IMG/VR virus record: IMGVR_UViG_3300029288_000149
Location: 11,317 to 75,316 of that record
Reading direction: 5' to 3' (one strand)
DNA from: a virus
Taxonomy: Duplodnaviria; Caudoviricetes
Length of the DNA stretch: 64,000 bases
A model generated the notes under the pieces. It was not told the origin of the DNA and ran no database searches. It worked only from the letters and a program-made list of their open reading frames with translations. The translations under genes and the position numbers were made by a program. Shown piece by piece: positions 21,427-60,819 of this stretch; position 1 is the stretch's first letter, and every line of letters begins with the position of its first letter.

Positions 21427-21845
21427 TATGTGCCTCCTATTATATCATGCACTGTTTTATATAAATTTGCAGAAGTCTTACGTGTAATTGCACCAATTAC
21501 ACTTGCGACTCCATTCGGATTACGTTCCATGTCTTCTATTGTAAATATACCTTGAGCATATAAAGCACTTTGCAATTCTTCAGGAGATATGGTAATACCG
21601 TCAGGATAGATCAACTTCCAGTCTATACCATGCTCTGTTCCTGTGGAAATTGCCTCAGGTAAGATATTGACATTCATACCTGGTCTTGAACCTGTTACAT
21701 AATCCCTAGCCACAATGTAAGTCTTATTGTCATATCTGACAACTGCAATCTTGCCTGTTAGAGAAATTATCTTTACCGTAAGTTTGTCAGTCACATTAAT
21801 CTCACAATCTTCTTGAAACTGTGCCACCCATCTTATGAGCAACAT
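21426..21845 (-). CDS. hypothetical virion-module protein
   Basis: 139-aa ORF in structural operon. Confidence 0.6.
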   Translation of the reverse strand: MLLIRWVAQFQEDCEINVTDKLTVKIISLTGKIAVVRYDNKTYIVARDYVTGSRPGMNVNILPEAISTGTEHGIDWKLIYPDGITISPEELQSALYAQGIFTIEDMERNPNGVASVIGAITRKTSANLYKTVHDIIGGT

Positions 21846-22305
21846 CTGTCAGTGTCGTATTCATGTCATTCAAAAGACTCTGCAGATTACCATTTTCAAA
21901 TCTAAGTCTCGGAGCCATGCCTGGAATTGAGTATTCCAGATCAGTTATTGAGCCATCAAGATTTATTTCTCCATGCCAATTTCCATCTTCTCTCTTATCT
22001 ACTATCAAATTAAGTCTGGATGGGAAATCATAATTTGTAGCTCTGCTTCTGGCACGTGATGTCACAGGCTTCAACATTACTTGCTTATCATAAAATTGTG
22101 CACTCTTTGAATATCCAGCTCTGTAAAGTTTATTATTTTCCAAATCAGAAATAACAGACTTTGAAGAACCTTTATCCATAACAACAGGTGTTCCTGGTGA
22201 TGAACCTTTAGGAGCTGACCCACCTACTTCACCAGGTCTACCCTTATGACCATGGAAGCCTGAACCAGCACCACCTTTGAGTCTGATAGTTAGTTTAACC
22301 ATCAC
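21802..22305 (-). CDS. KGGxGSG-tagged protein, unknown cargo
   Basis: N-terminal LKGGAGSGFHGHKGRPGEVGGSAP. Confidence 0.8.
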   Translation of the reverse strand: MMVKLTIRLKGGAGSGFHGHKGRPGEVGGSAPKGSSPGTPVVMDKGSSKSVISDLENNKLYRAGYSKSAQFYDKQVMLKPVTSRARSRATNYDFPSRLNLIVDKREDGNWHGEINLDGSITDLEYSIPGMAPRLRFENGNLQSLLNDMNTTLTDVAHKMGGTVSRRL

Positions 22306-23360
22306 AATCTCCTTATATTCCCTGGGAATTTACCACCTTGTCCAACCTTTGCTCTTGAATCTGCAACCCATGCATCAACAGCACCACTCTTTGAACCATA
22401 TGGAGTGATAATACTGTTAGGATTCTCTTCGACATCATCTGACCAATATCGATGTTCTGCATCACAAGAGCAAGGCTCGAATGGCATAAGACAATGTGCC
22501 AATCTAAGAGTTTGCATCTCTGTCATGACAGACTCCTGTCTGCCTGACAAGTAAGATACTCTAACGACAGCTTTGGAAGAATCTGAGCATGCTGCAAATC
22601 CGATAACACACAGTAAATTGTATATGTCTAAGTCAATGATTGACAACCGTTTGCTCTTTATCAATGCTGCTCCTGCTGTTGGTGTCTCAGCAAATGCATC
22701 ACCGAAGGTTATGTAATGCACACCCTCTGTTGCATCATAACTGACATATTTCACATCAACAGTTGTCAATAAGTTTGTATCATCATCGTACTGTAATGGA
22801 TCCTCACGGTCGTCATTCAGGGATGGTAATACTAATCTAGACCTCGGTATTTTTATCGTCAATACACCTGCTAATAATGATATGTAACTCGGATGGATTG
22901 GAACTGACTCACCAGGATAATAAACTACAATATCAGAAGTCGGTACAACCAAGGCTGTTGCAATAGTTAACACAACCGGGTCAATAATATTACCACTACC
23001 ATCGCGATGAGTAATTGCTACAGCAGTCTGTATATCTGTTATCGTCTTCAATCCCACACTAATAAGATGCTTCTTGTTCAGAACAAGAGGAGTGGTAATT
23101 GGGTATTCTTCACTTTCGATATACTTAGGAGCTATAAAGTAACCCAATTCCTGTTCACGCTTCTCCTCAGCTATGGCTAGATATCTTGCAAGATTATCTC
23201 TGTTAGATTGTCTCCAGATTGTAGTACAACTGTACACAGGAACTTCACCCGGTTTGTTCAAACCATTGAAGGCAGCGATAGGTAAACTCAACAATTCCTG
23301 ATAACGATCAAGAGTTAGACCAGTTTGCTGAGTAAGAGATATGTCCTGTGTTCTAGCCAT
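22302..23360 (-). CDS. putative head-tail connector/completion protein
   Basis: 352 aa, position between head and tail genes. Confidence 0.45.
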   Translation of the reverse strand: MARTQDISLTQQTGLTLDRYQELLSLPIAAFNGLNKPGEVPVYSCTTIWRQSNRDNLARYLAIAEEKREQELGYFIAPKYIESEEYPITTPLVLNKKHLISVGLKTITDIQTAVAITHRDGSGNIIDPVVLTIATALVVPTSDIVVYYPGESVPIHPSYISLLAGVLTIKIPRSRLVLPSLNDDREDPLQYDDDTNLLTTVDVKYVSYDATEGVHYITFGDAFAETPTAGAALIKSKRLSIIDLDIYNLLCVIGFAACSDSSKAVVRVSYLSGRQESVMTEMQTLRLAHCLMPFEPCSCDAEHRYWSDDVEENPNSIITPYGSKSGAVDAWVADSRAKVGQGGKFPGNIRRL

Positions 23361-23362
23361 TG

Positions 23363-24448
23363 TTAGTCCAGAATTGGGTTCCCTAATTGATAACTACCTT
23401 GACTCAACATTGATGATAAATCCTCACGTTCCTGCTTGTTGAACCTCATATTATTAATCTTTTGATAATCTCTGATAAGTAATCGAACAGATGGTGTTAA
23501 ACCTCGTTTTCTCATCTTATCAGCAATATCATACATTTGATTTGTTATGTCATCAAGAACTTGTTCATAAGCATCTTGTGCTTGTGACTCTTGCCCTGTA
23601 GTATCATACTCACCAGATGCAATTCTTCTGTTATGTAAAATTTTCATATTTTCTGTAACATTACTGGTATCATCCCTAAACATATTAGCATATGCCTCGT
23701 GAGCACTACCTCTACTCAATTCTCCATCCTCATTGGGGATACGTGATCTAATTCCTGGTAAATCTCCAGGTTTATCATCTGGAGAATGAACTTCTCTACG
23801 ATTGAGTTTAGTAGTCTTCCTACCACTCGCTTGACCACCAGCAGGAAGGGATCCACCATGATGACCGGGAATGCCTCTGTGTCCATGATGTCCTGAACCG
23901 GGACCACCTTTGAGCCGCATAACATAAGATTTACCAATAAATTCCTTCTGACCTGTCCAGTAATCTTCGAGTGACTTTGTGTCTGGAGGAGTTACGAGTA
24001 TGCCGTACTTCTCAGGACCGAGCATAGCCTTGTATCCAAAACCCTTCAGATAGTTAATCATTCCTTGCACTTGCTTAGGTGTCTCTGCACCATAAGCAAC
24101 CATAGGGAATGATCCAAGATCATGTGTGCCATCCTCAGATAAATGAGAAGTATCACTACCATAAACAGTATAACCAACTTTAGTTCTACTGTTTATGAGC
24201 TCAGCAGCACCTCTTGCAATGTCCTTAACAATTCTTCTGTCTGTAAAAGATTTGATGCCAAGAGCAATTGCCTTCTTACCAATGGCTATAAGTTCCTTAG
24301 AATAAGGATCCAAACCTGATTCATCAGGAGCTTGGGAACCAGATGCCGAGCTACCTTCAGGAGAACTCCCACCAACAAAACCAGGACGACCTTTATGACC
24401 ATGAAATCCTGATCCAGGACCACCTTTGAGTCGAATTGTATAAGCCAT
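23363..24448 (-). CDS. double-tagged protein (two KGGxGSG tags, two unknown cargo domains)
   Basis: LKGGPGSGFHGHKGRPGFVGGS at N-terminus and LKGGPGSGHHGHRGIPGHHGGSLP internally. Confidence 0.8.
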   Translation of the reverse strand: MAYTIRLKGGPGSGFHGHKGRPGFVGGSSPEGSSASGSQAPDESGLDPYSKELIAIGKKAIALGIKSFTDRRIVKDIARGAAELINSRTKVGYTVYGSDTSHLSEDGTHDLGSFPMVAYGAETPKQVQGMINYLKGFGYKAMLGPEKYGILVTPPDTKSLEDYWTGQKEFIGKSYVMRLKGGPGSGHHGHRGIPGHHGGSLPAGGQASGRKTTKLNRREVHSPDDKPGDLPGIRSRIPNEDGELSRGSAHEAYANMFRDDTSNVTENMKILHNRRIASGEYDTTGQESQAQDAYEQVLDDITNQMYDIADKMRKRGLTPSVRLLIRDYQKINNMRFNKQEREDLSSMLSQGSYQLGNPILD

Positions 24449-27792: not shown

Positions 27793-29169
27793 TTACGATA
27801 AGGCAGCAGCCTTGTAAAGCAAACCACCACCAGGCAGATAATCCGGTTGGAATGGATCACCTGAGACCGGACGTCTCATCTTGGCACAAGCCACATTACT
27901 GATACGCACCTGTGCCCACGGAGCAGCCAGATAGAGTTCAGGAGACATACCCATCATCAGGGTAATACACCAGTTGTCTTCCTTTGCCTTTGACACGAAC
28001 CGACCAGCAGCATCAGCACGTGCAGAGAATGAAGGTGCGTATTTCTTGACACGATTGGTGTATTCCCGAAGATCAAGATATTCACCATACAGAACATCCA
28101 AGTTGCCGATTCTGCGAGAGAGAATGTAGATGTCAGTTGAATATCCATACAGGGACTTGTTGATGTCCAAGGAGTCTTCCACGATGATTGGGAGCCGACG
28201 ACCGGATTTGAGATTGATAAATCCGACAGCACTGGCACCATCGTAAAGTGGACCACCGTTGAGTGCGAACCTTGCCTTACGTTGTTCTGCTCGCAGAGCC
28301 TGATCAGTGACATCGTTGCTGTCAGTAACACCACAAGTGGTGTAACAGGCATAAGCGTCCAGAAGGCAGGTTGCCATGAAGCGAGAGGTCAACAAGATCA
28401 TGTCAGTTTCGGTGATTGGACCAAGGTCTTGAGCACGATATTCAATTTCTGTGATGACTTCATCAAGATAATTGAAGAAGTTGCCAAAACCATTATTCTC
28501 ACCATCAAGGGTGTCGTTTGCCCAATTGACGAGAATACTGTCCAACATCGGTGCTGGTTGACCGTCATCGTCAACGTATCCGGTTTTGATGATGGTCTCG
28601 AGACCATTCATCTCATTGGCAGAGAGGTGAGAATCGTGAATAACACCACGCCGCAGGGACTGTTGCATTGCGGTCATGATGCCGTTCATCTGCCATTCGA
28701 TGTCATCAGCGATAACCTTACCGTTGAGACGATAACGAGGACTGGTTTCACAACGATCCTGATTGATGGTATGAGGATCAAGTGGATCACCAATTCGGTG
28801 GTACCATGAAGAGTGCAGGAGCTCATATCCAGCATGACCGTACTCAAAACCAACAGTAGGATCAGCACAGGGAGCACCAGCACCTGTCGTAGCACCTTGT
28901 CCAGAAGTTCCTTCAGGACCAAACCAGGTAATGAAGTCAACACGTCTGCGATAGAATCGATTTGGACGCCAGCCAAGCCAGTTGATCAGACCGTGTGATT
29001 GAACTTGCAGACCAAACACATCTCCCTGAACACAGGGATCGAAGATCGAATACCGACCATAGATGTTGACAGTTGAAGGATCTCCGAGATCCTGCTCCTT
29101 CAACACCGTACGACCAGAATCGAAGAAAGTTACGAGAGCATTACTGGGTTTAACAATAGGTTGTACCAT
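27793..29169 (-). CDS. major capsid protein
   Basis: 458 aa, after protease/scaffold; visibly C-ending codon bias of a highly expressed gene; followed by a terminator. Confidence 0.8.
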   Translation of the reverse strand: MVQPIVKPSNALVTFFDSGRTVLKEQDLGDPSTVNIYGRYSIFDPCVQGDVFGLQVQSHGLINWLGWRPNRFYRRRVDFITWFGPEGTSGQGATTGAGAPCADPTVGFEYGHAGYELLHSSWYHRIGDPLDPHTINQDRCETSPRYRLNGKVIADDIEWQMNGIMTAMQQSLRRGVIHDSHLSANEMNGLETIIKTGYVDDDGQPAPMLDSILVNWANDTLDGENNGFGNFFNYLDEVITEIEYRAQDLGPITETDMILLTSRFMATCLLDAYACYTTCGVTDSNDVTDQALRAEQRKARFALNGGPLYDGASAVGFINLKSGRRLPIIVEDSLDINKSLYGYSTDIYILSRRIGNLDVLYGEYLDLREYTNRVKKYAPSFSARADAAGRFVSKAKEDNWCITLMMGMSPELYLAAPWAQVRISNVACAKMRRPVSGDPFQPDYLPGGGLLYKAAALS

Positions 29170-29210: not shown

Positions 29211-30731
29211 TTAATCATGTCTGAGGAACTCAGTCATGCTGCCAGAGACATGACCGTCGGCATCAATGATCTTGCCGCTCAATTCCTTCTTTTTCTTCAC
29301 AGGGACGGTAACCTCTTCTTCACCATCCTCTTCTTCATCCTCTACCTGATCTTCAGGTTTGAGGAGTTTAGGAATCTTGGAAGATTTGAATCTTGAAATG
29401 CGCAGTGTGCTGCCACGAGGAGTTTCAGCAATGAGTTCCTTGAGACGATCTTCGTCCTTCTCAAGCAATCGTTCAATAACGTCTCGCAATCCTTGCACTT
29501 CTTCCTTCAACTCTTCGATGGTTTCGATTTCCTTGGTGACTTCATCACCCTCAGTTTCGAGAGTAGCACCTTCAAGCAATTCCTTGAGGACAAAACTTGC
29601 CTGTTCATTGGCAATTTTTGCAAATTCCTTGAGAACAGTGGGATCAAGGACAAACACCTGCTCTTTGTCTCTGTATTCCTTCTCACCAACCTCTTCAGAA
29701 TCTTCGTCCTCAGAAGGATCATCTTCCGGGTCGTCGATAGGATCATCTTCTTCATCCTCATCAGAATCTTGCTTGAATTCCTTGAGGACTTCAGCCATAG
29801 GGACATTATCGAAGGATTTCAAGGTCTCATCGGTAATGTCTTTTAACCGTTCGTCGATCACGTCTTCTGAAAGTCCAGCCTTCAGAAGTCTCTTCTTCAA
29901 AATTTCCTTTTTCATAACAGCCTCCTGTTTATTTGTATGCACGAATGCAGCAACACCTGTCCACGGTACAGCAGGAACATCAGTAACCGTAATGTCAAAT
30001 GTTTTGGTCTTTAAGAATCTCGTATCATCTAGAGACCCTTTAAATCCTGAATTTACTTTCAAACACTTTGGGCATCTGAACCCAGCAGTCATATGCTTTT
30101 CACGAATCAACAGAGATTCTCCACAATGTGGACAACCACCTGAGGCTTCCAGCACTTTGAATCCTCTTGATGTCTTCCACTTCCCAGTATTGTGTGACAA
30201 CATCTTCTCACACACTTCTAATGAGAACGGATCATCGTAAGATTCACCCTCTTCGACAGCGAATATCCCGACACGTTTCATGCTCTTCACTCTGCCAATT
30301 CCTAATGGCCTTTTGTGAAATACCCTAAACTCGGGATACTCGCCAGTCTTCAATGCTTGTGCTATTTCGTAGTCTATGGCATCGACCGTAAAGGTCTCGC
30401 CTTCTCTATCTTTGAGTGCAGCAGTTGATACACTGATAATCTTGTATCTACCATTATCCTGCTTATTAACATACAAATCAGCAGGTACACTGAGTGAACC
30501 GTCTACTTGTAATTTGGAATATTCCTTCTCTTTTGTGTCTCGTCTCTTCCACGAACTTCCATCAATAACAAATGATTTCTTGAATTTGGAAATTGCAATT
30601 GCCCAACTATACTTCTTGTCAGGAATAGCATCAGCTACTCTAGCAATCCAATTCATCTGCTCGAGTGTAAGACTTACACCATTCAGTTCCTGGATATTCG
30701 CTGGTGCTTCAGAAGTCTTAGACCAAGGCAT
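29211..30731 (-). CDS. prohead protease/scaffold fusion (ChaB-like N-terminus, XkdF-like protease, Zn ribbon, acidic scaffold)
   Basis: WAIAISKFKK ChaB-like segment; STAALKDREGETF..FHKRP; CPHC..CPKC; long E/D-rich coiled-coil C-terminus; directly upstream of MCP. Confidence 0.65.
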   Translation of the reverse strand: MPWSKTSEAPANIQELNGVSLTLEQMNWIARVADAIPDKKYSWAIAISKFKKSFVIDGSSWKRRDTKEKEYSKLQVDGSLSVPADLYVNKQDNGRYKIISVSTAALKDREGETFTVDAIDYEIAQALKTGEYPEFRVFHKRPLGIGRVKSMKRVGIFAVEEGESYDDPFSLEVCEKMLSHNTGKWKTSRGFKVLEASGGCPHCGESLLIREKHMTAGFRCPKCLKVNSGFKGSLDDTRFLKTKTFDITVTDVPAVPWTGVAAFVHTNKQEAVMKKEILKKRLLKAGLSEDVIDERLKDITDETLKSFDNVPMAEVLKEFKQDSDEDEEDDPIDDPEDDPSEDEDSEEVGEKEYRDKEQVFVLDPTVLKEFAKIANEQASFVLKELLEGATLETEGDEVTKEIETIEELKEEVQGLRDVIERLLEKDEDRLKELIAETPRGSTLRISRFKSSKIPKLLKPEDQVEDEEEDGEEEVTVPVKKKKELSGKIIDADGHVSGSMTEFLRHD

Positions 30732-30781: not shown

Positions 30782-31261
30782 TCATGAATTGTAATACACA
30801 TCAAAATTCTTATCAACCTTAGTAAGATTCTTTGGCACAAGTCTTCCCATATCATCACGCAACATCGCATGAGTAGGTTCAAAGAATCTTACCTTCTCAG
30901 CAACATTCTGACCTTTCCTTATCATAAAATTTCCTCCTGGAATAACACACAGTATGTCGCCAGATTTAGTAGTAACAACATCATAAGTATTGTCAAGTAC
31001 TTGTGCAGCACCGTACCACACACCAGATCTCTGAGTACCTGTCTTAATCCAAACTTTTATTCCCTTTGGAAGTTTATAATTACCATTACTAACATTGTAC
31101 TCATATGTTACTTCAGATCTCTCCAATTGTCTTCCTGCAAACTTAGGTGCTGCAGATGCTTGACCATCTCTTGGAAGGGATCCACCGTGATGACCAGGAA
31201 TACCTCTGTGTCCATGATGCCCTGAACCAGCACCACCTTTAAGTCTGATTGTGAATTTCAT
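30782..31261 (-). CDS. KGGxGSG-tagged protein, unknown beta-rich cargo
   Basis: MKFTIRLKGGAGSGHHGHRGIPGHHGGSLP. Confidence 0.8.
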   Translation of the reverse strand: MKFTIRLKGGAGSGHHGHRGIPGHHGGSLPRDGQASAAPKFAGRQLERSEVTYEYNVSNGNYKLPKGIKVWIKTGTQRSGVWYGAAQVLDNTYDVVTTKSGDILCVIPGGNFMIRKGQNVAEKVRFFEPTHAMLRDDMGRLVPKNLTKVDKNFDVYYNS

Positions 31262-31342
31262 ACCGATTCTCCTTAATTTCTGAACATCCTTCTCAGAGAT
31301 GGGAAGTTGCTTCTCAACACAATGTTCTTTGTTTATAAATAA

Positions 31343-32113
31343 TTAATTAGATTTTTCATCGACAATTTTTATCTGTTTAGGGTCGAAAACCACCCACTCT
31401 GTTTGTCTCCTTCCAGAAGAGTCCTTTACATAGTTAACAATTCCATCATAACCTTGTCTTTTCAAATTTTCTATCTTTGTCATGGCTGCTCTCTGGCGTG
31501 CTTTTGAATCTTCTGAGCTTCCATATCTTAAGTCAAGAGGATTTTTGACAGACAGAATCGCACTATATATCTTTGCTCCCACTCCAGTCTTTGTGTATGT
31601 CTTTTCTAGAAGTGGGTCATACGTTCTTGTTGATACAAAGTAACTGGCAAAATCTTTTGATGGTGTAAAATATATTCCACCCTTAGCATCATTTGATTCT
31701 GTATTACTGCCACTTTTATCCAAGTCAAATTCTGTAAATGGTGAAGTTTGTTTAATAATATCACCACCATTCTTAATTTGATAATCTCTGTATGCTCTCC
31801 CCCATCCGTCTAAATCTTTATTAATATCATCTATACTTGGAGGATTTATTCTTCCAGTATCTTTGTATATTCTTACTATAGCATTGTGCAATTCTTTTGA
31901 GTAATTAGTGTTATAAACAAGAGAATTTGGTGTTCCATGATAAACCGTTATAGGATTCCCTTTTGTATCTACTACCTTACTACCAGAGAACCATTTATCA
32001 ACAGCACTAGCTGAACTTCCTTCAGGCAAACTCCCACCCTGATGACCAGGACGACCTTTATGACCATAATGTCCAGATCCTAGACCACCTTTGAGTCTTA
32101 GTGTGAATTTCAT
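31343..32113 (-). CDS. KGGxGSG-tagged ADP-ribosyltransferase (ART-PolyVal-like)
   Basis: Tag, then WFSGSKVVD..VYHGT..GIYFT..KNP..GYDG..EWVVFDPKQIK. Confidence 0.75.
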   Translation of the reverse strand: MKFTLRLKGGLGSGHYGHKGRPGHQGGSLPEGSSASAVDKWFSGSKVVDTKGNPITVYHGTPNSLVYNTNYSKELHNAIVRIYKDTGRINPPSIDDINKDLDGWGRAYRDYQIKNGGDIIKQTSPFTEFDLDKSGSNTESNDAKGGIYFTPSKDFASYFVSTRTYDPLLEKTYTKTGVGAKIYSAILSVKNPLDLRYGSSEDSKARQRAAMTKIENLKRQGYDGIVNYVKDSSGRRQTEWVVFDPKQIKIVDEKSN

Positions 32114-32682
32114 GCCGATTCTCCTTTACTTATCTTACGATATGCACGTTTTACAGATGCTTCAATAATACTTCTGAACGCTCCAGCCTCTTTACTCTTT
32201 GCCCACTTTATAATTGTCTCTGTAAAATTACGAGGATAAATACCAGGATGGTGCACAACTTCAACATTCAGAAATTTAGGATCTCCAGTAGGTGGAAATC
32301 CTTGAATACTAGGATTTGGTAGAGTAATTGGAGTGTGTGGAACTTTGAATGACAAATAATTACTCTTCTTTGGTCGAATCTCATAATCCTTACCACCACC
32401 TCTAGAACCTGTGCCTTTATCTACCCAACCATAAATTTTACCAATCTTTGTTGTCTTTGCAACTTTGGCTATAACAGACCAACGTCTCTTAGTAACTTTA
32501 ATACTTACTGTGAAGATAGGTTTCTCACCCCAATTGTTTACAGTGTCTTCAAATTTACCCTTCACAACTTTGGAAAATTCTGTAAGACCACTCTCAACTT
32601 CCTTCTGCACAAGTTCATGCTGACGTCTTTTGGTACCTGGTCTTACTTTACGCTTGAGAACTAACATTGGTGGCATTGTCAA
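32110..32682 (-). CDS. HK97 gp10-like head-tail/neck protein
   Basis: YGWVDKGT..YEIRPK..LSF..VHHPGIYPRNF pattern. Confidence 0.55.
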   Translation of the reverse strand: MTMPPMLVLKRKVRPGTKRRQHELVQKEVESGLTEFSKVVKGKFEDTVNNWGEKPIFTVSIKVTKRRWSVIAKVAKTTKIGKIYGWVDKGTGSRGGGKDYEIRPKKSNYLSFKVPHTPITLPNPSIQGFPPTGDPKFLNVEVVHHPGIYPRNFTETIIKWAKSKEAGAFRSIIEASVKRAYRKISKGESA

Positions 32683-33017
32683 TCCTTGTTGAATGCATCA
32701 AATACCCAAGCATCGAAGTACTGACCAAGTTCATCCCAATCACCATCAGAGAGTTTGATGTTCGATCTGTCCAACAAATCTTCAACAGCCTTGTAAAACC
32801 TCTTCTCTTCAGAAGAATAAATTTCTGGAAATATTGTGTCAAAATAATTCTTGACAGTCTTGCTCAATGCAAAGACATCCTTACCGTCCCAAGAAATTGT
32901 GTCTGTTGAAGAATTCATACTTTTGCCTGGAAGAGATCCACCCTCTTGTCCTTTACGACCAGCATGACCATGATGACCACTACCGAGACCACCTTTGAAA
33001 CGAATCGTAAGTTTCAT
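32679..33017 (-). CDS. KGGxGSG-tagged small protein, unknown helical cargo
   Basis: MKLTIRFKGGLGSGHHGHAGRKGQEGGSLP. Confidence 0.75.
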   Translation of the reverse strand: MKLTIRFKGGLGSGHHGHAGRKGQEGGSLPGKSMNSSTDTISWDGKDVFALSKTVKNYFDTIFPEIYSSEEKRFYKAVEDLLDRSNIKLSDGDWDELGQYFDAWVFDAFNKD

Positions 33018-33019: not shown

Positions 33020-33550
33020 TTATCCTTTCTTCCACACATAATTATACTGATTAGGATGAGTATTATCTTTATGAAATCCAAATTTCTCATACCATTTGTC
33101 AGAATTCTTTGAAGAAGACATAACATATAAGAACACATTCTTACGTTTCAATTCATTCAATAACTTTATACCTTCTCCAGCTTGTGTGCTGCTAATAGAT
33201 AAAATTTCTGTACCAAAACCTCTTTGCTTAGTTGTAGCTCCAGCAATCAATTTACCTGCATTATCTCTGATTATGTAATACTTCGCATTAAGTTCTCCAC
33301 TAACATCCCAGAAAGGACCACCTGTTCGTACCTTGTAAGTTTTATCCCATTCGGTATTCAATTTCTTCGCATTAGACAGACTGGAATCAAGAATTTCTAT
33401 TTTTGGAAGTGTAATTGTGTTATAATTCTTATTATCAAGAGTTATAGATAAACTGTCTGAAGACAAAGAACCACCCTGTTGTCCAGGTCTACCTTTGTGT
33501 CCAAAGTGTCCAGATCCTATTCCACCCTTTAATCTCAACATAAATCTCAC
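33020..33550 (-). CDS. KGGxGSG-tagged GNAT acetyltransferase
   Basis: Tag, then ILSISSTQAGEGIKLL (motif A-like) and WYEKFGF. Confidence 0.65.
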   Translation of the reverse strand: MRFMLRLKGGIGSGHFGHKGRPGQQGGSLSSDSLSITLDNKNYNTITLPKIEILDSSLSNAKKLNTEWDKTYKVRTGGPFWDVSGELNAKYYIIRDNAGKLIAGATTKQRGFGTEILSISSTQAGEGIKLLNELKRKNVFLYVMSSSKNSDKWYEKFGFHKDNTHPNQYNYVWKKG

Positions 33551-35577
33551 AACACACCTCTTCCAATGTACTTAGGCACCACAGTATCTTTAGGTACAAC
33601 AAACATTTCCACATGACCATTTCTCTCAAGACAATCCTCACAATGTTCTGCAGGTGATAATCTCCACACTGCTTTTACAGTCTTGTCTCCAGATTTCTTA
33701 TCAACCTTTATTATCTTCAAATCCCAACGACAACGACAATTCACAAGACAATTTGTCGATCCATCACCAGGAATCCAAGGTAACAAACTTTCAATAATAG
33801 CACCAGCTTGAATAAGTGCAGCTGTATTGCCTGTGGCACGACCATACATCCTAGCACGTGCTTGTATTGCCTTCAATGATATTGTGTCAGACTGTTCAGC
33901 GATCGTAGTGGCAAAACCATGCAAATATTTGTACTGTTCACGAAGAGGTGTGCCCAAACGTCCCCAATCTGCTGAAGTCATCTGATCCCAACCACCCTTT
34001 GCGATCGCAGCAGCAGAAGAATGCAATTGTCTCAACTCAGCACGCATTGCTTCTTCCCAAGCACCAATTGTCAAGTCACCAGTAAATACCTGTTCAGAAA
34101 GTTTGTCAGATTTGTCATAGAAAATGTTTACTCGCAAATTCAATAACTTCTGTATGTCCTTGTCAGAGATAGGAAGTTGCTTCTCCACTCTAAAATATTT
34201 CCACCAATCAGGATCAGTCTTGTCAACACCACCACCAACAGGAGTATCATCTGAAACAACAGCAGCATGTATTGTGACAATATCCTGTTCAAGATCTATC
34301 TCTCCAAGTCTTAATTTCATTCTTCTTGTAATAAATTCCTGCTCAGATTTTATAGGAAACAATTCTGGAGTGATTTTCGAACTGACAATAATTTTAGACA
34401 CAGGAATGTTTGCAATGATCTTATATCTATATTTAGAATATTCTTTTGGACCAGATCCTTCTGACATACTAAACACATCATCAATCTCAATTACTTGACC
34501 CACAACATAAGGATTTACAACACCAGAAAGATTTTGTGTTCTATGAACACCAAGAACAGAATTTATTCCCAGTCTCTTCAAACCACTTTGCGTATCATTT
34601 ATAAAAGCATCCATACTTCCAGAATTAAGAATATTAACTAAATCAGATTTTGAATAATCTACAAGATTTGTATAATTGACAACGGCATCAGTTAATACAG
34701 AAGTATACAAACTGTCTGAAGGTAAACTCCCACCCTGATGACCGGGAATGCCTTTATGACCAAAATGTCCTGAACCTGGACCACCCTTTAGGACAACAAT
34801 GTTCTTAGAAGTAAAAGATTCCTTGAAGACCATAACATTGTTGTCAAATCCATCAAATTCACCAGAATCAACAACATGATCTGCCATCAATAAATCATCC
34901 ATTGAAAAGTCTGTCAATATGGCAGTTTGTGAATTCGGTACTGGAGAATTTAGTGACACTCTGTTGAATGTCTCATAAGTTGTCCAATCAATATTTATAG
35001 GATTACCATTTGAACTTCTTGCAGGCAATTTACCGTCATCTACTAAATTCTGCAGTTTACGTAACGCAATTTTGTCTATCTTATTGGTTGATATTGCAAT
35101 TCCTGTAAGCATATTATTAGTATCATAAAATGCTCTAACTCTTATTAACTTCTCGCGCATCTCTTTAGAGAACATAAATGGTAATTTACCAAATGCGGCA
35201 TAAGATGTGTAATTGTCTTCAAATTCCTTTATTGAAGATTCATCAATACCATTAAACAATTCAGGTTTGTTACGAATAGCCTGTATAACAGTTATGGTAT
35301 GTTCTTGTTCAGTACCAGAATCAAGCAATGTTCCATCTGGTAATATGGTATATCCAAATCCTTGCATATCATCAAAGTGATTAAGTTTTGACACATTACG
35401 TTCTTCAAGTTCTTTGAATGAATTAGCAGTCAATATAGGATTATCGTCTGAGTAAGGTTTATAATTACTAACACCTTCTGATACTGATCCACCTACCTCA
35501 CCAGGACGTCCCTTATGACCATAAAATCCTGACCCCACACCACCTTTGAGGACAACGACTGCTCTCATAACCATCAA
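33547..35577 (-). CDS. MuF-like minor head protein with two tags, an unknown domain and an R-S-E ADP-ribosyltransferase-like domain
   Basis: Directly after portal; C-terminal PGDGSTNCLVNCRCRW..HCEDC MuF Cys motif; internal GVHR..FSMS..SEQEF. Confidence 0.75.
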   Translation of the reverse strand: MMVMRAVVVLKGGVGSGFYGHKGRPGEVGGSVSEGVSNYKPYSDDNPILTANSFKELEERNVSKLNHFDDMQGFGYTILPDGTLLDSGTEQEHTITVIQAIRNKPELFNGIDESSIKEFEDNYTSYAAFGKLPFMFSKEMREKLIRVRAFYDTNNMLTGIAISTNKIDKIALRKLQNLVDDGKLPARSSNGNPINIDWTTYETFNRVSLNSPVPNSQTAILTDFSMDDLLMADHVVDSGEFDGFDNNVMVFKESFTSKNIVVLKGGPGSGHFGHKGIPGHQGGSLPSDSLYTSVLTDAVVNYTNLVDYSKSDLVNILNSGSMDAFINDTQSGLKRLGINSVLGVHRTQNLSGVVNPYVVGQVIEIDDVFSMSEGSGPKEYSKYRYKIIANIPVSKIIVSSKITPELFPIKSEQEFITRRMKLRLGEIDLEQDIVTIHAAVVSDDTPVGGGVDKTDPDWWKYFRVEKQLPISDKDIQKLLNLRVNIFYDKSDKLSEQVFTGDLTIGAWEEAMRAELRQLHSSAAAIAKGGWDQMTSADWGRLGTPLREQYKYLHGFATTIAEQSDTISLKAIQARARMYGRATGNTAALIQAGAIIESLLPWIPGDGSTNCLVNCRCRWDLKIIKVDKKSGDKTVKAVWRLSPAEHCEDCLERNGHVEMFVVPKDTVVPKYIGRGVL

Positions 35578-41460: not shown

Positions 41461-41533
41461 TACCACCAGCTGGAGTCGAACCAGCAACCATCGGATTAGA
41501 AGTCCGGTGCTCTATCCATTGAGCTACGGTGGT
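41461..41533 (-). tRNA. tRNA-Arg(TCT)
   Basis: ACCACCG/TGGTGGT acceptor, CT-TCT-AA anticodon loop, GGTTCGACTCC T-loop; 73 nt. Confidence 0.9.
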
Positions 41534-44545: not shown

Positions 44546-45802
44546 TCAAAGCTCCTTATTCCTCGAGTCACCGACAGCATACTTATCACGAAATGCTTTA
44601 CTTTGATATGTAATTACACCAAACATACCTGTCTCTGACAAAACTGATGAAATAAATGCATCTTCAAATGGGACTCCATAGTAAGCATTACCAGCAGTCT
44701 TCCATGTGTTGTCAACAACATTACCACTCTTATCTACACACCATGCATGTTCTATCGGTATGTCAGCAAAGTCAGGAATGGCAAGACCTTCAACATATTG
44801 CAATTCATCATGTGCTGATGCTAGATAATATGCATTCATATAGCACAGCTTTGGCTTGCCTAATTTATACTTCTTAGGTAATTCTTGAGGAATATAAAAC
44901 TTACCATGCCTCTTTACGACACCATAAATGGAATTCTCTTGCATATTTGATACTTTGTCCACAAAGTCAGTCAAGACTCTCTTACTATCATTTGAGGAAG
45001 ATACTAATACACCTCTTGGTAAGCTACCACCTTCTTGTCCAAGACGTCCCTTATGACCATGAAAGCCACTTCCTACACCACCTTTATACTGATGTGCTAA
45101 TTTACCTATTAGTTGTTGGAATTCTTTGTTTTTGTAGGTAATAGTCTTCAAATTAGTAATAAATGAATCCCACATATTAGAAACTTTTGTATCGTCTATA
45201 AGTTTACCACCATGCTTGTCTATAAGATCTTCAAGTGTCGCTTCTCTTTTAGGCAGCCATGTACTTAAGAATTTGTCCGTACCTATGACTTTGTAATCAC
45301 CACCAGAAAATTTATCAGCAACAGCATTAGCTTGATCTCTTAATACATCGAAACTAGACATATCATTGGTGTACGGCATTCTAACAGTAATTGCAGGTGA
45401 GAAGAATATGTCATTCTCTCCAATATACATACCAGAAGCAATTGCAGCATCTTTTATGGACTGTAATTGTTCAGGAGTATTTTTATGCTTCCAAAATGCT
45501 ATATAGCCTACACCTCTTGAGCGTCTATCAGGATAAGGATAATCAACCATTAATCCTGATGCACTTTGTGCAGAATTATATCCCATCTTATGTAATTCTT
45601 CAAGAGTGTCAGCAATTCCTGCATCAACTCCTTTAGCAACACCTTCAGCATCTCTTACTCTAACTCCCATAGAATCAATTGTTATTGGCTTGTCTGTTGT
45701 CGATAAAACACCACGTGCGATAGATCCACCAACTTCTCCCTTACGACCTTTGTGTCCATGAAAACCTGAACCTAAACCACCCTTCAATCTACCAATAATC
45801 AT
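44546..45802 (-). CDS. double-tagged protein: unknown cargo + Cys-His-Asp (transglutaminase/papain-like) cargo
   Basis: LKGGLGSG and YKGGVGSG tags; CYMNA..YVEG..IEHAWCVD..VVDNTW. Confidence 0.7.
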   Translation of the reverse strand: MIIGRLKGGLGSGFHGHKGRKGEVGGSIARGVLSTTDKPITIDSMGVRVRDAEGVAKGVDAGIADTLEELHKMGYNSAQSASGLMVDYPYPDRRSRGVGYIAFWKHKNTPEQLQSIKDAAIASGMYIGENDIFFSPAITVRMPYTNDMSSFDVLRDQANAVADKFSGGDYKVIGTDKFLSTWLPKREATLEDLIDKHGGKLIDDTKVSNMWDSFITNLKTITYKNKEFQQLIGKLAHQYKGGVGSGFHGHKGRLGQEGGSLPRGVLVSSSNDSKRVLTDFVDKVSNMQENSIYGVVKRHGKFYIPQELPKKYKLGKPKLCYMNAYYLASAHDELQYVEGLAIPDFADIPIEHAWCVDKSGNVVDNTWKTAGNAYYGVPFEDAFISSVLSETGMFGVITYQSKAFRDKYAVGDSRNKEL

Positions 45803-50964: not shown

Positions 50965-52518
50965 TTAGAACACCACTCCTCCACCACCTGACTGATTCCA
51001 GAATGCTAAACAGCACGCATCACCGTAGTCAGTGGAGCGTCCCAATCTCTTCTTCAATGAGTCCTTCGACTCTATAAGTATCACAGCATCACGTGTTATC
51101 GTCCACTTAGGAGTAATCAGGTCTCCTTCTAATAGTGGTTCTGGAGGTAGCATCATCTCGACACCTGAATTGGGATCAAGGTTCTCCCTCATCTTCCACC
51201 ACATCGCAGCACGAACGTTCGCAAATTTCATCTCGCCTGTCTTATCGTGTAAATACGTCTTAGCTCCTACTGTAATTGGTTTGAGTCCCGGCACTCCATC
51301 CTTCTTAAGGATATCATATACAGCTGCACCGAGTCCACCATCCATTTCAATATGACAGTCATACTGTCCCTGTGCACGTGTGCGTGCGTGGGACATCCCA
51401 ATCGTGCCTCCTGACGATAATAGCTTCACTTTCTCGGCAGTCATCGTGGTCGGAAGTTTTGTGAAACCGTGGATATCCACGAGTGCCCAGGCATTACGCA
51501 CAGCAATGACCGTTGAGTCTTCCCCGCTTCGCGCGGTATCAATCCCCAGAACCCTTCGTCCCATCTGTTCGGGACGACCCTTCTGATCCCACTCCTTCCA
51601 ACGTGCAATCGCAGCAAGCACCCAACTTCTAGGGATAATGCCCTCTTCAGTGTCGTCAGCAAATTCTCCTAACACACGATTCTGATACATAGCACTGTTC
51701 TCTCCCCACTGCAATGCCCTCTGACGTGCCCACTCACGTGACACACGTCCTGCTCGTATACTATCCTCGAGTGTGACATGCTTAGTCCACCAGTCCTCAT
51801 AACCTGGCTTATGCATTTGAATGTCATAGAATCGTCCTGAAGGATCACCTGGTGTAGAGATAGCGAACGCACGACACTCCTCTCCTCCTGCTAGTCCTTC
51901 AGTAGAGAATGCTCCTTCAGCTGCGTCCCACATTGACACAGGAATTGCCTTTGCTTCATCAAACACATAGAACAGTTTCTTTGCGTGTGCTCCCTCAATG
52001 CTTGTGTGGTTGTCTGCTGCCACGGCAAATGCCTCAACGATTCCGTTGTTCAGACGAATTGACTGTCCGAGTAGTTCGGCATTGGCAGTCCGCTGGCTGT
52101 AAGGAGGACGACAGACGACCGACCATGCTACCTTCAATGCCACTTTATGTACCTCTGGCCATAGATACTTCTCTAATTGCCTCCACGCACTGGCTGTAGT
52201 AGGCACCTTACAGTCGTCTCGAGCAGTAAGAACGGCATGGTGTATTAGCATAGCAGCAACGAACGTCTTACCTAGTCCATGTGGTCCCCTTACAGACACT
52301 CTCCTATGCCCCTCATCGAATGCCCCGAATATCTCGTCCTGGTAGAACGTGATCGTGTGGTTGTACTCAGGGAATACGTCGTGCACGAAAGCTATCCTAT
52401 CGTTCTCGTACATTTGCTTGAATCGTACTGATTCGTTCGAACTCCCTACTTGCAGATTTATGCCCTGCAGGATTGATTGCATTGTGACGGCATTATTGTC
52501 CAACTTAGACGGTGCCAT
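50965..52518 (-). CDS. terL: terminase large subunit
   Basis: VRGPHGLGKT Walker A; VFDEA Walker B; ISTP; nuclease LGIDTARSGEDST; STDYGDA. Confidence 0.92.
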   Translation of the reverse strand: MAPSKLDNNAVTMQSILQGINLQVGSSNESVRFKQMYENDRIAFVHDVFPEYNHTITFYQDEIFGAFDEGHRRVSVRGPHGLGKTFVAAMLIHHAVLTARDDCKVPTTASAWRQLEKYLWPEVHKVALKVAWSVVCRPPYSQRTANAELLGQSIRLNNGIVEAFAVAADNHTSIEGAHAKKLFYVFDEAKAIPVSMWDAAEGAFSTEGLAGGEECRAFAISTPGDPSGRFYDIQMHKPGYEDWWTKHVTLEDSIRAGRVSREWARQRALQWGENSAMYQNRVLGEFADDTEEGIIPRSWVLAAIARWKEWDQKGRPEQMGRRVLGIDTARSGEDSTVIAVRNAWALVDIHGFTKLPTTMTAEKVKLLSSGGTIGMSHARTRAQGQYDCHIEMDGGLGAAVYDILKKDGVPGLKPITVGAKTYLHDKTGEMKFANVRAAMWWKMRENLDPNSGVEMMLPPEPLLEGDLITPKWTITRDAVILIESKDSLKKRLGRSTDYGDACCLAFWNQSGGGGVVF

Positions 52519-57842: not shown

Positions 57843-58532
57843 TTAGGGATTATCTTCTTGCCACTCATTCTTTTGGATAACGTTGACTCTGTCTCCAATG
57901 CTCACACCTGACATGCGGTTTGTCAATTCCTTCACTGCTCTGTCACGCACAGCAGGGTCTGAGATGTTCTTCAAAAGAATATCAGCAACTGTGGCTTGAA
58001 GGTACATAGCCTGTGCTGCTGTCAACGTATTACGATTCTCAATCTTGGAAATCTTCTCAAGCAGTGTGCCAATAGCAGCCACCAACTTTGTAGCTCTTGA
58101 TATTGCGATACCATAATTGTCTTCGTCTACATTAGGAAAGTTTTCAAGAAATTCGTGGAATATGGCTCGCATACTAGCAAGTTCGATTGATAAATCTGAC
58201 AAATCTGAGGAATCACCTGTTAGGAATTCCTCAATCTTGTCCTGAAGTACTGCTCTTGTAACAACTGCATTCTTACCACTTCTTATACTGGCTGTTATAT
58301 TAGTATTACCTCCATGCAGACGACAGGCTCCAGTACCATAATGGCTTGTACCCATACCAGCAGGACGATTACAACGCAGTCCTTTGCCTCTATTATCAAC
58401 ACCGTTCAAAGTCCTGAAACAAAGAGCAGTTTCTGACCTCTCAAGATCATCATTGTGGGTAATCCAATAAGTAACACCACCAGGTGTGCCCTGCTCTTCG
58501 CGGATTGTAACCTTATCTTTACTAATTGGCAT
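57843..58532 (-). CDS. terminase small subunit candidate (C..HGG type)
   Basis: LRCNRPAGMGTSHYGTGACRLHGG motif followed by helical oligomerisation-like region. Confidence 0.6.
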   Translation of the reverse strand: MPISKDKVTIREEQGTPGGVTYWITHNDDLERSETALCFRTLNGVDNRGKGLRCNRPAGMGTSHYGTGACRLHGGNTNITASIRSGKNAVVTRAVLQDKIEEFLTGDSSDLSDLSIELASMRAIFHEFLENFPNVDEDNYGIAISRATKLVAAIGTLLEKISKIENRNTLTAAQAMYLQATVADILLKNISDPAVRDRAVKELTNRMSGVSIGDRVNVIQKNEWQEDNP

Positions 58533-58725
58533 TGGGTTGGAAATCCTTCTCCATTTTCAAGATAACTCTGGCGTCTGGTCTGTCTCTGTTTACGACACCA
58601 TAAAGAGTGCGACCATCCTTCAATCTTATGCGTATCATGTCTGCCTTGTCTTCCTCAACGAGTTGGTATTTGTTGTTGAGGAAAACTTTCTCTTCAATCT
58701 CTTCTTGCAGGATAGTACTTCTCAT
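58522..58725 (-). CDS. hypothetical protein
   Basis: Operon-coupled 67-aa ORF. Confidence 0.55.
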   Translation of the reverse strand: MRSTILQEEIEEKVFLNNKYQLVEEDKADMIRIRLKDGRTLYGVVNRDRPDARVILKMEKDFQPNAN

Positions 58726-59735
58726 CCCTTACTCCTTGATAGTGGTACATACTTTGGTATCAATTTGTGTTCATACAAACCTTGATTTATCTCATTGTAT
58801 AGATTAGTCCATCTTTTTGAGATAAACACATTCGGATCACCATTATAGGCTGCTACTTCTGCAAGATTCTCACCAATCGCATTACTTACAGCAAGACCAT
58901 AATTTGCCGTCCTTGCTACTTCGATATAAGACTTACCATAATTTGTAACTGGGATTTGGTACAACAGTGAGCGCAGTTCTGTATATCCATAATATCGCTG
59001 TTTTATGTCAATTGCCCAATACTGACTGATGAATTCAGGTCTTACATTTCCTTGCTTATCCAATACGACAGAATCAGAATCCCATGGATCTTGTAACTTC
59101 TTCAACAAGGCTTCCTGTCTGTGTAATTGCTTCTCAAACAAGTGAAATCTGTGGTGCATAACTTCATGTGCTATCAGTCTCTTGTTTATGTGAGGAATGC
59201 CATTCTCGTCATAAGTCAGACTATTTGAGAAGACTGTTATCTCTCCTGTCTTAGGTTGATAAGACATAGCAGTTTCATAATTATTCTCACCAACTATGAA
59301 TGCAGAACCTTTGTAATTGAAGTAGACCATCTTGTCTCTTGGAAATCCAAGTTCGTCAGCATACTCTTCCAATTCCTGTCTTATCTGATTCTTATGCTCT
59401 TCAGGCACCTCATCAGCATTCAGGAATTTGACTTCTCGTACCTTCTTAGCAGCAGATGCACCCTTTGGTAAACTCCCACCTACCTCACCTGGTCTACCCT
59501 TATGTCCATGATGACCGCTACCAGCACCACCTTTGAGTATGATAAGATCTTTGTTGATATACTTATACCCACCATCATTATTAATATTATCTGTATGTAA
59601 ATTCTTACCAGACAGTATGTCTTCAGGTATCCCATTCGGGAATGCTAAGCATACAGGAGTTATACCATCCCCTAAGAATCCTATAAAGAATTTGCATCCT
59701 CGTTGCTGACAGATTACTGGATTTGGTACAGTCAT
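58722..59735 (-). CDS. Cys-rich module + internal KGGxGSG tag + HExxH zincin metallopeptidase
   Basis: CQQRGC..CLAFPNGIP..H module; LKGGAGSGHHGHKGRPGEVGGSLP; LIAHEVMHH..ENLAE. Confidence 0.7.
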   Translation of the reverse strand: MTVPNPVICQQRGCKFFIGFLGDGITPVCLAFPNGIPEDILSGKNLHTDNINNDGGYKYINKDLIILKGGAGSGHHGHKGRPGEVGGSLPKGASAAKKVREVKFLNADEVPEEHKNQIRQELEEYADELGFPRDKMVYFNYKGSAFIVGENNYETAMSYQPKTGEITVFSNSLTYDENGIPHINKRLIAHEVMHHRFHLFEKQLHRQEALLKKLQDPWDSDSVVLDKQGNVRPEFISQYWAIDIKQRYYGYTELRSLLYQIPVTNYGKSYIEVARTANYGLAVSNAIGENLAEVAAYNGDPNVFISKRWTNLYNEINQGLYEHKLIPKYVPLSRSKG

Positions 59736-59745
59736 GTTATACCTT

Positions 59746-60819
59746 TCACCACTTAGGTACCACTAATTTATTCTTCTTCAAAAATTCAATATCTTGACTT
59801 ATGTAATCTAATCTGTCTTTCAATTTCTCATAATTAGTACCAACAATCAAGTTAACAAATGACTCAGCGTAATCTTCCATGGTGTTAGTGAACGCATACA
59901 TGCTTGGTCGCATTCCTTTATTGAATATCTCATTATGTAAAATGTCTCTACTTTTATCACTAGACTTGTCTTCACGATAAAATCTTGAATCATCCAATAT
60001 ATGACCAAGCTCATGTATAAACGCTGAAGGACTTGATCCATATCGCTCATTGTGTATTCTAATATCTCTTCCTGTTACAGATGCAGCAGCACCATCACTT
60101 TTATCGTAAATTATTGCACGTAATGCTCCACTCTTCAAAATAGTATCAATTCTTGGATCATAATTTGCTAACTTTACAACATCTGATAATAAACGATCAG
60201 ATGTCTCTTGACTCATGCCCTCAGGTACAAGTCTGTGTGTCATTATCCCATACTTATCATACAATATATGTGCAGCATTTTCAATATTTGGGACAACATT
60301 TGTGTCAGTAACATACTTCATACCAACTTTGTGAAAGTACTCAGGAGGTACTGGTACCATGTCTGTTGAATAACCTTCTTTATCCTTTATTGTCCACTTA
60401 ACTCGCCACAAATAAATGTTACGCTTTGCTGCTAATTCAGCATCATTATACTTTTGCACATACTTGTGTGATTCAAGTTTTATTTCCTCAGTATACCAAT
60501 CTGCATTTCTGTACAAATAATCTAATTCTTCAGGATTGCCTAATGTAATGTACTGTGCAGTTTGGTCAGCAACCTCTTCCGAGATTCCCTTACTTTGTAA
60601 GTACTTAGAATATTCATCCTGTATGTTCCTGCAGTCTGAATAACTTTGAGTAACTATGTATGACAATTTACCAATATCAACCTTTGTCTGCATAATTACT
60701 CTAACACTTGAACCTCTTGGTAAACTTCCACCAACTTCACCAGGTCTCCCACGATGACCGAAGTGTCCACTTCCAATTCCACCTTTGAGAACAACAATTA
60801 CTGGCAAATTTGACTCCAT
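59746..60819 (-). CDS. KGGxGSG-tagged zincin (anthrax-LF-like) metallopeptidase
   Basis: LKGGIGSGHFGHRGRPGEVGGSLP; FIHELGH..YAFTNTMEDYAESF. Confidence 0.75.
   Translation of the reverse strand: MESNLPVIVVLKGGIGSGHFGHRGRPGEVGGSLPRGSSVRVIMQTKVDIGKLSYIVTQSYSDCRNIQDEYSKYLQSKGISEEVADQTAQYITLGNPEELDYLYRNADWYTEEIKLESHKYVQKYNDAELAAKRNIYLWRVKWTIKDKEGYSTDMVPVPPEYFHKVGMKYVTDTNVVPNIENAAHILYDKYGIMTHRLVPEGMSQETSDRLLSDVVKLANYDPRIDTILKSGALRAIIYDKSDGAAASVTGRDIRIHNERYGSSPSAFIHELGHILDDSRFYREDKSSDKSRDILHNEIFNKGMRPSMYAFTNTMEDYAESFVNLIVGTNYEKLKDRLDYISQDIEFLKKNKLVVPKW

Follow-up and report, generated by a model that had tools for sequence, protein, structure and literature searches.

A conserved glycine- and histidine-rich leader of unrelated effector modules in uncultured tailed phages, with a possible role in loading the phage head

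Background

Why do eleven genes of one tailed phage, encoding otherwise unrelated products, carry the same short peptide? The DNA that raises this question is a stretch of 64,000 nucleotides (nt; hereafter the window) comprising positions 11317-75316 of the 75,316-bp IMG/VR record IMGVR_UViG_3300029288_000149, which has a CheckV completeness of 96%. The peptide, referred to here as the tag, is a Gly/His-rich sequence of 24 residues that is present in 14 copies in 11 open reading frames (ORFs), all on the minus strand, as are all genes of the region. A preliminary description of the window had interpreted it as a portable signal that loads any enzyme fused to it into the phage head for injection at infection. 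The analysis described here supports this interpretation in part: we see a roughly even chance that the tag is a leader for loading, and probably also processing, portal-proximal injected effectors. Loading, cleavage and injection are steps that we infer.

Occurrence and conservation of the tag

The count of 14 copies in 11 genes given in the preliminary description was reproduced, as a six-frame scan, the ORF translations and a sequence profile all recovered the same 11 ORFs. When the profile of the 14 copies was run against the whole 75,316-bp record, it found these 14 sites only (E 1.6e-20 to 6.6e-18); in 30 kb of the GC-rich Streptomyces phage TurkishDelight, used as a control, there was no significant match (best full-sequence E 0.17 [6 bits], best single domain 9.3 bits). 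The tag pattern in the window is hhh-[KR]-GG-x-GSG-xx-GH-x-G-[RI]-P-G-xx-GGS, with 13 positions invariant across the 14 copies (K, GG, G, S, G, G, H, G, G, GG and S). Shine-Dalgarno sequences (aaggag) lie upstream of the ATG of M-K-h-T-h-R-L-K-G-G in several genes, most clearly at 22302, 31261, 32113 and 44544, and the tag is therefore at the extreme N-terminus in nine of the 11 genes; the starts defined in this way put it within residues 1-30 in several of them. Three genes have a second, internal copy, and in one gene a Cys-rich segment of 60 amino acids (aa) stands ahead of the tag.

The copies are conserved as peptides. Mean identity among the 14 is 69% at the nucleotide level compared to 77% at the amino acid level, and 481, 413 and 985 of the differences among them fall at codon positions 1, 2 and 3, respectively, in agreement with the earlier remark that the copies differ chiefly at third codon positions. 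Different codons are used at 723 of 1,546 identical residues (47%), and Ser is encoded by both TCN and AGY. Because protein identity is kept while the codons differ, including those of the two Ser families, selection acts on the tag peptide and not on the DNA. The possibility that the tag is a DNA-level repeat or recombination hotspot, or a chance feature of low complexity, draws on the closest pair of copies (89% identical in DNA) and on the apparent swapping of cassettes at tags (discussed below), but the low mean nucleotide identity, the codon switches, the third-position excess and the 4,096 protein clusters in which the tag recurs make this explanation extremely improbable, and the codon-level divergence of the copies contradicts a DNA repeat.

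No named family was found for the tag, as the preliminary description had supposed, nor any known family with another role. Pfam searched with the 14 tags alone returned no family at E<=10, the collagen-like repeat PF01391 included; PDB sequences and NCBIfam had no match over the tag; PHROG matches of the tagged proteins covered cargo only; and an ESM Atlas search with the tag gave nothing usable. Literature searches by motif strings retrieved only unrelated GGPGSG cases (adenylate kinase, linkers), and searches by concept found no such tag described. Within the libraries and literature searched, the conserved leader itself thus appears to be undescribed.

Several familiar motifs were considered and set aside. 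The full R-G-R-P core of an AT-hook, which has basic residues on its flanks, is not typical of the tag: GRP, present in 84-88% of copies, mostly follows A, K or E, with R ahead of it in 13% of copies in a smaller sample of instances and outside the top three residues in a sample of 931. A remnant of a P-loop or Rossmann GxGxxG motif would be expected to have the following helix and K[ST], neither of which is present, and a His-rich metal site is hard to reconcile with a single invariant His. A self-cleaving G|S motif was likewise rejected, as the tag is modelled as unstructured.

Distribution in other phages

The preliminary description had suggested searching phage and metagenome proteins with a profile of the tag. 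Among 1.84 billion cluster representatives from public metagenomes (50% identity), this profile matched 4,096 at E<=1e-3, of which 770 reached E<=1e-10 and 100 reached E<=1e-30. The longest matched protein has 3,154 aa, and a single protein has as many as 10 matched stretches. A word-indexed search gave 609 matches among 8,000 candidates, with 1-6 copies per protein that are mostly about 200-300 aa apart. The Pfam domains on these 609 matches, which are of the kinds usual in polyvalent proteins, are PF03496, PF18760, PF06414, PF02195, PF13563/PF02834, PF00583, PF00454, PF07804, PF07737, PF18818 and PF04860. Over 931 distinct instances, conservation is 97-99% at the G, S and H positions, 88% for R and 84% for P, and the wider consensus reads [KR]GGPGSG[NH][FH]GHxGRPGx[VR]GGSxP followed by a G/S-rich stretch.

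Tag-bearing loci in IMG/VR number 72, and each of the 19 whole virus records searched over their full length (the source records of tag-bearing loci) carries between 1 and 16 tags. In contrast to these, 185,579 species genomes of GTDB contain 69 pattern matches, approximately the number estimated for chance, with one confirmed case on a 1.8-kb contig of a metagenome-assembled genome. Judging from these surveys, the tag is essentially confined to viral contigs. Searches of cultured phages by tblastn gave no match, whether the queries were tagged proteins, the putative portal of the window or the tags themselves, the last being a weak result due to the low-complexity filter.

Structure of the cassettes and a possible role in processing

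The tag stands ahead of its cargo and is never C-terminal: at least 80 aa follow the last tag in 184 of 196 tagged ORFs, and the three with fewer than 30 aa are probably contig ends. Median tag spacing in this set is 233 aa. The same tag-cargo cassettes are arranged in related phages either as many small genes (11 tags in genome G001, 14 in G009 and 14 in the window) or as polyproteins of 2,000-3,000 aa, with giant examples in G006 (an ORF of 2,728 aa with at least eight tags) and G004 (1,943 and 1,721 aa). Cutting 392 tagged proteins at their tags yielded 1,201 modules that group into approximately 600 clusters, with 411 singletons among them; the 10 commonest were tested against Pfam, and three had a match, one of them spurious. 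This variety of cargo, together with the codon divergence described above, bears out the earlier view of a portable, selected peptide ahead of unrelated domains. The N-terminal modules that lack a tag of their own include PF04860 and PF06381 portals, MuF, 2H/Acb1-like domains and a Cys4 domain that we call the anchor domain (discussed below). We also observed fusions of a portal (PF06381) to NUDIX that continue into tags and further cargo within a single ORF, the longest being 1,860 aa (loci L072, 7778-9994, and L054, 7778-13360).

In giant polyproteins, the layout of the ORFs makes the tag just as much a border between one module and the next. Because it recurs at these borders, up to 10 times, a role in processing or as a hinge has as much support as one in addressing. 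An AlphaFold2 (AF2) model of the two-tag protein encoded at 23363-24448 gives both tags (residues 1-42 and 169-252) a predicted local distance difference test score (pLDDT) below 50, with 70-83 for the module between them (module A), suggesting that the tags are disordered; this model is weak overall (mean pLDDT 55, predicted TM score 0.34, alignment of 12 sequences).

The tag could accordingly be read as a processing site or hinge only, cut by the prohead protease or by an embedded zincin or papain-like peptidase. Loading would then depend on fusion to a portal, MuF or anchor domain or on other signals, and the N-terminal copies on single genes would have been carried along by cassette evolution. 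Such a role fits the tags at every module junction of the polyproteins (up to 10, about 230 aa apart), including those exactly between a portal and the next module, and their unstructured model. The motif [LIV]-x-G-G resembles the sites of the virion cysteine proteases of adenovirus and African swine fever virus. Zincin and papain-like modules are common as cargo, and zincin-mediated processing has been proposed for polyvalent proteins (PMC5512222). However, N-terminal tags on single-module genes, with nothing upstream to remove, are conserved as strongly as internal ones, even where their codons have diverged synonymously, and 24 conserved residues go far beyond a usual cleavage site. Pro stands behind GG in 52-56% of copies and disfavours cleavage there; cleavage directly after KGG was rejected as a candidate on account of this Pro, at P1' in over half of the copies. 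There is also no peptidase family common to all tag-bearing genomes. We therefore regard processing or a hinge as the sole role as unlikely. If it were the sole role, the tag would still show where the units of a large class of viral polyproteins begin and end.

Association with head genes

In relatives of the window's phage, tags are located directly behind Pfam-verified portals (PF04860, PF06381), ahead of MuF and inside DUF2213 proteins, and at least 13 loci, the window among them, have a tag in the next gene, which overlaps the portal stop codon. In locus L001, a tagged ADP-ribosyltransferase (ART) protein of 1,266 aa is encoded approximately 1.2 kb downstream of a Portal_Mu gene, with one untagged gene between, and upstream of a Mu-like protease. 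The link to head proteins that had been proposed for the tag thus holds for the relatives; the part of that proposal that placed a tag on a MuF protein of the window was not confirmed (see below).

The tags of one phage resemble each other more than they do those of other phages. At the variable tag positions, identity is 0.61 within genomes versus 0.375 between them, a difference reached by none of 300 label permutations, and the third bases of four-fold degenerate Gly codons are nearly randomised (0.446 versus a codon-bias baseline of 0.328). This genome-specific signature suggests a partner that co-evolves with all the tags of a phage; shared descent of the tags is the alternative. A universal reader was also searched for. 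The Mu-like protease is found in one of 20 genomes, the two zincin families in three and two of the 20, and the papain-like module in a minority of sources. The head gene sets themselves are of several kinds: Portal_Mu occurs together with a Mu-like protease, portals of PF04860 or PF06381 occur together with DUF2213 and a DUF2184 capsid protein, and the set of the window has no recognised family.

With the channel, the DNA or a host factor as a universal partner, the conservation of the tag across unrelated head families would be explained, and the tag might then be an exit or post-entry leader: it would thread modules through the portal and tail channel, bind DNA (K, H and GRP contacting phosphate and minor groove) or recruit a host chaperone for refolding. 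A tag that is always N-terminal to cargo, rich in Gly and modelled as unstructured would suit this function, the conserved GRP core (84-88% of copies) would suit DNA binding, and both the split and the concatenated layouts would make sense. The genome-specific signature, by contrast, points to a phage-specific partner, RGRP is uncommon (13% in the smaller sample), and we know of no ejection signal of this kind. On these grounds, an exit leader seems to us distinctly unlikely.

The anchor domain and exchange of cassettes

The tagged gene at 33547-35568 had been taken to encode the minor head protein MuF. We found no PF04233 in its product or in the genome, an hhalign comparison with a true MuF gave a probability of 2%, and none of 89 homologues has PF04233, so this assignment was dropped at the level of sequence. 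The gene does share MuF-like traits, in that it is located directly downstream of the (putative) portal gene and its product has effector domains fused to it. Its anchor domain belongs to a Cys4 family (PGDGST-C-x3-C-x-C ... AEHC-x2-C) without a Pfam match and with 89 homologues, examples being at 33550-34215 (minus strand) in the window, at 5426-6136 in L028 and at 11396-12022 in L020. It occurs alone (approximately 215-250 aa), behind cargo (2H, ART-PolyVal or Vsr) or at the N-terminus of giant tagged polyproteins. Among 20 genomes, seven have the anchor domain and eight have PF04233, and because the two never occur together, the comparison suggests that the anchor domain is a functional analogue or a very distant homologue of MuF.

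Tags on portal, DUF2213 and anchor proteins raise the possibility that the tags bind each other. Gly at every third residue from GSG to GGS makes five Gly-x-x triplets, which might assemble in a collagen-like or polyglycine-II-like manner and bundle the cargo into an inner-body-like mass on a tagged structural protein; the similarity of tags within a genome would fit self-recognition. A stable triple helix would nevertheless need more than five triplets, the tag is not matched by the collagen model of Pfam, and the AF2 model of the two-tag protein shows no tag-tag contact or structure. Furthermore, genomes G002 and G009 have a stand-alone anchor protein that is untagged, yet carry 4 and 14 tags, respectively. 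Bundling of the tags is thus a very improbable explanation.

The window retains what may be traces of cassette exchange. The ART gene and the next tagged gene share a reading frame across 31262-31342 (minus strand), with one TAA between them, and the spacer stretch VEKQLPISEKDVQKL is identical at 38 of 45 nt to the start of the anchor domain (34144-34188). Fusions of ART to the anchor domain are present elsewhere (P0209), and the spacer looks like the relic of such a fusion, displaced by a tag-cargo cassette. In eight homologues of the protein encoded at 23363-24448, module A is common to all and the modules behind the second tag differ. By these comparisons, cassettes are exchanged at the tag.

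Proposed function of the tag

In the explanation we prefer, uncultured tailed phages would build a portal-proximal, virion-carried set of effectors from cassettes, each consisting of a short hydrophobic strand, the motif K/R-GG-P-GSG-(N/H)(F/H)-GH-x-GRPG-xx-GGS, a Gly/Ser linker and a cargo. This set would amount to a polyvalent arsenal of ADP-ribosyltransferases, zeta kinases, 2H phosphoesterases, ParB, NUDIX, GNAT, zincins, papain-like enzymes and hundreds of domains without a family, its cassettes being strung behind a portal, MuF or anchor domain in one polyprotein or, as in the window, encoded by separate small genes. The leader is probably a disordered linear motif that would be read by a component of the phage head during prohead assembly, and this reading would load each cassette inside the shell close to the portal. 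In the concatenated forms, it probably also marks the points at which modules separate or hinge, comparable to the double role of the T4 capsid targeting sequence. We favour a dual role of head recognition and subsequent module separation because it covers both layouts and either role by itself leaves gaps: a pure cleavage site fails to account for N-terminal tags on single-module genes, and a pure address is redundant behind a portal.

A number of points weigh against a loading leader. Head families differ among tag-bearing phages and no single conserved reader was found among them; neither zincin family is universal and nor is the papain-like module. Extreme conservation across unrelated head systems would be unusual for a peptide that docks on a fast-evolving shell or scaffold, and cargo that is part of a portal fusion would have no need of an address. 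The assignments of portal, capsid and protease genes in the window are unverified predictions, and the disorder of the tag is suggested by a low-confidence model. Neither a cultured tag-bearing phage nor a virion proteome with tagged proteins was found, although the low-complexity filter of BLAST may have hidden some such phages.

A bolder form of the loading leader would make it a plug-and-play signal that works universally for loading into the capsid, and perhaps for ejection, across unrelated portal, protease and capsid families. We regard this form as possible but on balance doubtful. If it were true, any cassette with the leader could move between phages and at once become a virion-delivered effector, and a hidden Markov model of the tag would index thousands of injected anti-host or anti-defence proteins, approximately two thirds of them of unknown fold.

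Virion-carried phage proteins are active from the first seconds of an infection and very difficult to identify by sequence; the motif appears to flag them directly. If the tag has a loading role, it would provide a sequence handle for cataloguing the injected effectors and counter-defence enzymes of uncultured phages, explain how polyvalent arsenals are assembled and exchanged as cassettes, and be a candidate for a portable tag with which foreign proteins could be packaged into phage capsids.

Comparison with known systems

With respect to cargo and context, the system belongs, on sequence grounds, with the polyvalent proteins and the MuF/portal-effector fusions. Polyvalent proteins combine 2-15 effector domains in one polypeptide and are thought to be packaged and injected (PMC5512222). 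Their cargo of ART-PolyVal, zeta-like kinases, 2H/LigT, ParB, NUDIX, GNAT, RelA/SpoT-like domains and zincin metallopeptidases is shared with the tagged proteins, as are fusion to or proximity to portal/MuF genes, extreme domain shuffling and predicted packaging and injection (PMC5512222). From this repertoire, PF18760 and PF06414 were identified in the window, and PF13563/PF02834, PF02195, PF18818, PF03496, PF00293 and PF00583 in tagged relatives. Relatives reach 10 tag-delimited modules per protein, whereas the genes of the window have one or two each, the arsenal being split into 11 genes. In contrast to the polyvalent proteins described previously, every module here is preceded by one conserved motif: the words "glycine", "linker" and "low-complexity" do not occur in the text of that description, which gives no sign of a conserved leader between modules (PMC5512222). 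Gp030 of cyanophage PSS2, a classical polyvalent head protein that is homologous to the zeta module of the window, does not have the tag.

In its mode of action, the tag would by analogy work most like the T4 targeting sequence, the propeptides of giant phages or the loading peptides of encapsulins. The T4 capsid targeting sequence is a short N-terminal peptide on unrelated head-internal, injected proteins including Alt, and serves both as an address, sufficient to bring a foreign protein into proheads, and as a substrate of the prohead protease, which removes it. The tag is likewise a short N-terminal peptide common to unrelated proteins, with an ART among the cargo, and a head-internal location is suggested for it by context. 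The two are not similar in sequence, the L/I-x-E site of T4 is not found in the tag, and the tag is also internal and repeated. In addition, the T4 sequence is limited to T4-like phages, whereas the tag spans different portal and protease families.

Giant phages such as phiKZ and SPN3US load many head-internal ejection or inner-body proteins, paralogous or unrelated, that are then cut by the prohead protease at S/A/G-x-E. Large sets of head-internal proteins would be a common feature, as we infer such a set for the tag-bearing phages; the sites of the giant phages are short compared to the 24-residue motif, and the tag-bearing genomes, at 70-105 kb, are not jumbo. The cargo-loading peptides of encapsulins, which are not viral, are usually C-terminal, have the consensus GSLxIGSLKG and address unrelated enzymes to the lumen of an HK97-fold shell, binding a pocket on the inner face of the shell protein. 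They share with the tag a hydrophobic-x-hydrophobic-x-L-K-G flavour followed by Gly and differ from it in position and consensus, and no homology was detected.

As a border between modules, the tag may also be compared to the pre-toxin motifs of polymorphic toxins (VENN in CdiA, DPxGL in Rhs), which mark the edge of an exchangeable toxin module. In both cases a conserved border precedes a hypervariable module and is the point of cassette replacement. A pre-toxin motif forms one C-terminal junction in a secreted bacterial toxin whose immunity gene lies alongside, while the tag forms many phage junctions per genome and no immunity genes were seen.

Tagged genes of the window and their neighbours

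The tagged genes and the other features discussed are listed in Table 1. Two of the cargoes named in the preliminary description, an ADP-ribosyltransferase and a zeta kinase, are secure by Pfam; a second ART-type domain (R-S-E) was recognised by motif only, with no Pfam match, and the GNAT assignment is matched weakly. For the two predicted HExxH peptidases, the motifs AHExxH...ExLAE and HExGH...EDxAE are each conserved within their own family, and neither module has a Pfam match. The same applies to the predicted Cys-His-Asp enzyme (44549-45013, minus strand), a module of approximately 165 aa present in 18 sources with conserved ECYxNA, HAW and GxVxDxT and no Pfam match. Its relatives include those at 6639-7118 in L026, 15219-15743 in L027 and 11913-12410 in L047, and it is a candidate for a new thiol peptidase or transglutaminase-like family.

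Table 1. Tagged genes and other features of the window, with positions in the window
Feature	Position	Strand	Remarks
Tagged gene	21802..22302	-	Tag core 22216-22281; cargo of ~135 aa, no family
Two-tag gene	23363..24448	-	Tag cores 24365-24430, 23849-23914; modules A and B
Putative major capsid protein	27793..29169	-	Gene order and homology to unannotated genes; Atlas lead to SU10_MCP, unconfirmed by PF17236
Putative protease/scaffold	29211..30731	-	Conserved N-terminal half; acidic coiled-coil C-terminal half
Tagged gene	30782..31261	-	Tag core 31178-31243; cargo without family; apparent in-frame anchor-domain remnant VEKQLPISEKDVQKL ahead
Tagged ADP-ribosyltransferase (ART-PolyVal)	31343..32113	-	Tag core 32030-32095; Pfam PF18760, 2.4e-15
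Tagged gene	32679..33017	-	Tag core 32934-32999; cargo of ~80 aa, without family
Tagged gene, weak GNAT-like cargo	33020..33541	-	Tag core 33467-33532; Pfam FR47/Acetyltransf_7, E 0.02-0.03, below cut-off
Two-tag gene with C-terminal Cys4 anchor domain (residues ~455-676)	33547..35568	-	Tag cores 35485-35550, 34726-34791; directly after putative portal; PHROG 24776 only
Putative portal, untagged	35574..37511	-	Stop overlaps start of tagged 33547-35568 gene; gene order and homology to unannotated genes
Tagged zeta-toxin-family kinase	43639..44544	-	Tag core 44461-44526; PF06414, 8.1e-23; phrog_16619 minor head protein
Two-tag gene, second cargo a papain/transglutaminase-like Cys-His-Asp module	44546..45802	-	Tag cores 45722-45787, 45023-45088
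Large terminase (TerL)	50965..52518	-	tblastn 45% identity over 91% of query to annotated terminase of Streptomyces phage TurkishDelight
Untagged 229-aa protein, no family	57843..58532	-	Conserved in 11 tag-bearing loci
Gene with 60-aa Cys-rich N-terminus, tag and zincin-like AHExxH...ExLAE module	58722..59735	-	Tag core 59472-59537
Tagged gene, zincin-like HExGH...EDxAE module	59746..60819	-	Tag core 60724-60789

Among the other genes of the window, TerL is confirmed and a tape measure protein (PF06791, 5e-5) is weakly supported; the portal and major capsid labels have no family match. For these two genes and that of the putative protease/scaffold, no match was found to Pfam, NCBIfam, PHROG or PDB sequences, and PF05133, PF12236, PF06381 (portal), PF14550 and PF17236 were not detected in the genome. 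The XkdF protease named earlier could not be upheld, as there was no PF14550 match and the AF2 model was unusable (pLDDT 42). The putative portal is homologous to the gene directly upstream of the anchor-led polyproteins in L020, L022 and L028, and had no tblastn match in 50,697 phage records. Based on these searches, this phage lineage appears to have no cultured relative for its head genes. GT2-type glycosyltransferase genes are located at 24450-27695 (minus strand), right behind the putative capsid gene; in TurkishDelight, a glycosyltransferase is likewise encoded just behind the capsid gene.

Two tRNA genes (Met-CAT and Arg-TCT, at 41237-41310 and 41460-41533 on the minus strand) lie between the thymidylate synthase region and the tagged zeta cluster. 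The gene for the untagged 229-aa protein is directly downstream of a tagged zincin-module gene both in the window and in L006. Adjoining the two tagged zincin genes, at 61287-62756 (minus strand), is a gene for an untagged protein of 489 aa. Its M23-type metallopeptidase domain matches PHROGs with the annotations endolysin, tape measure or minor head protein, and it may be a virion protein that degrades the cell wall.

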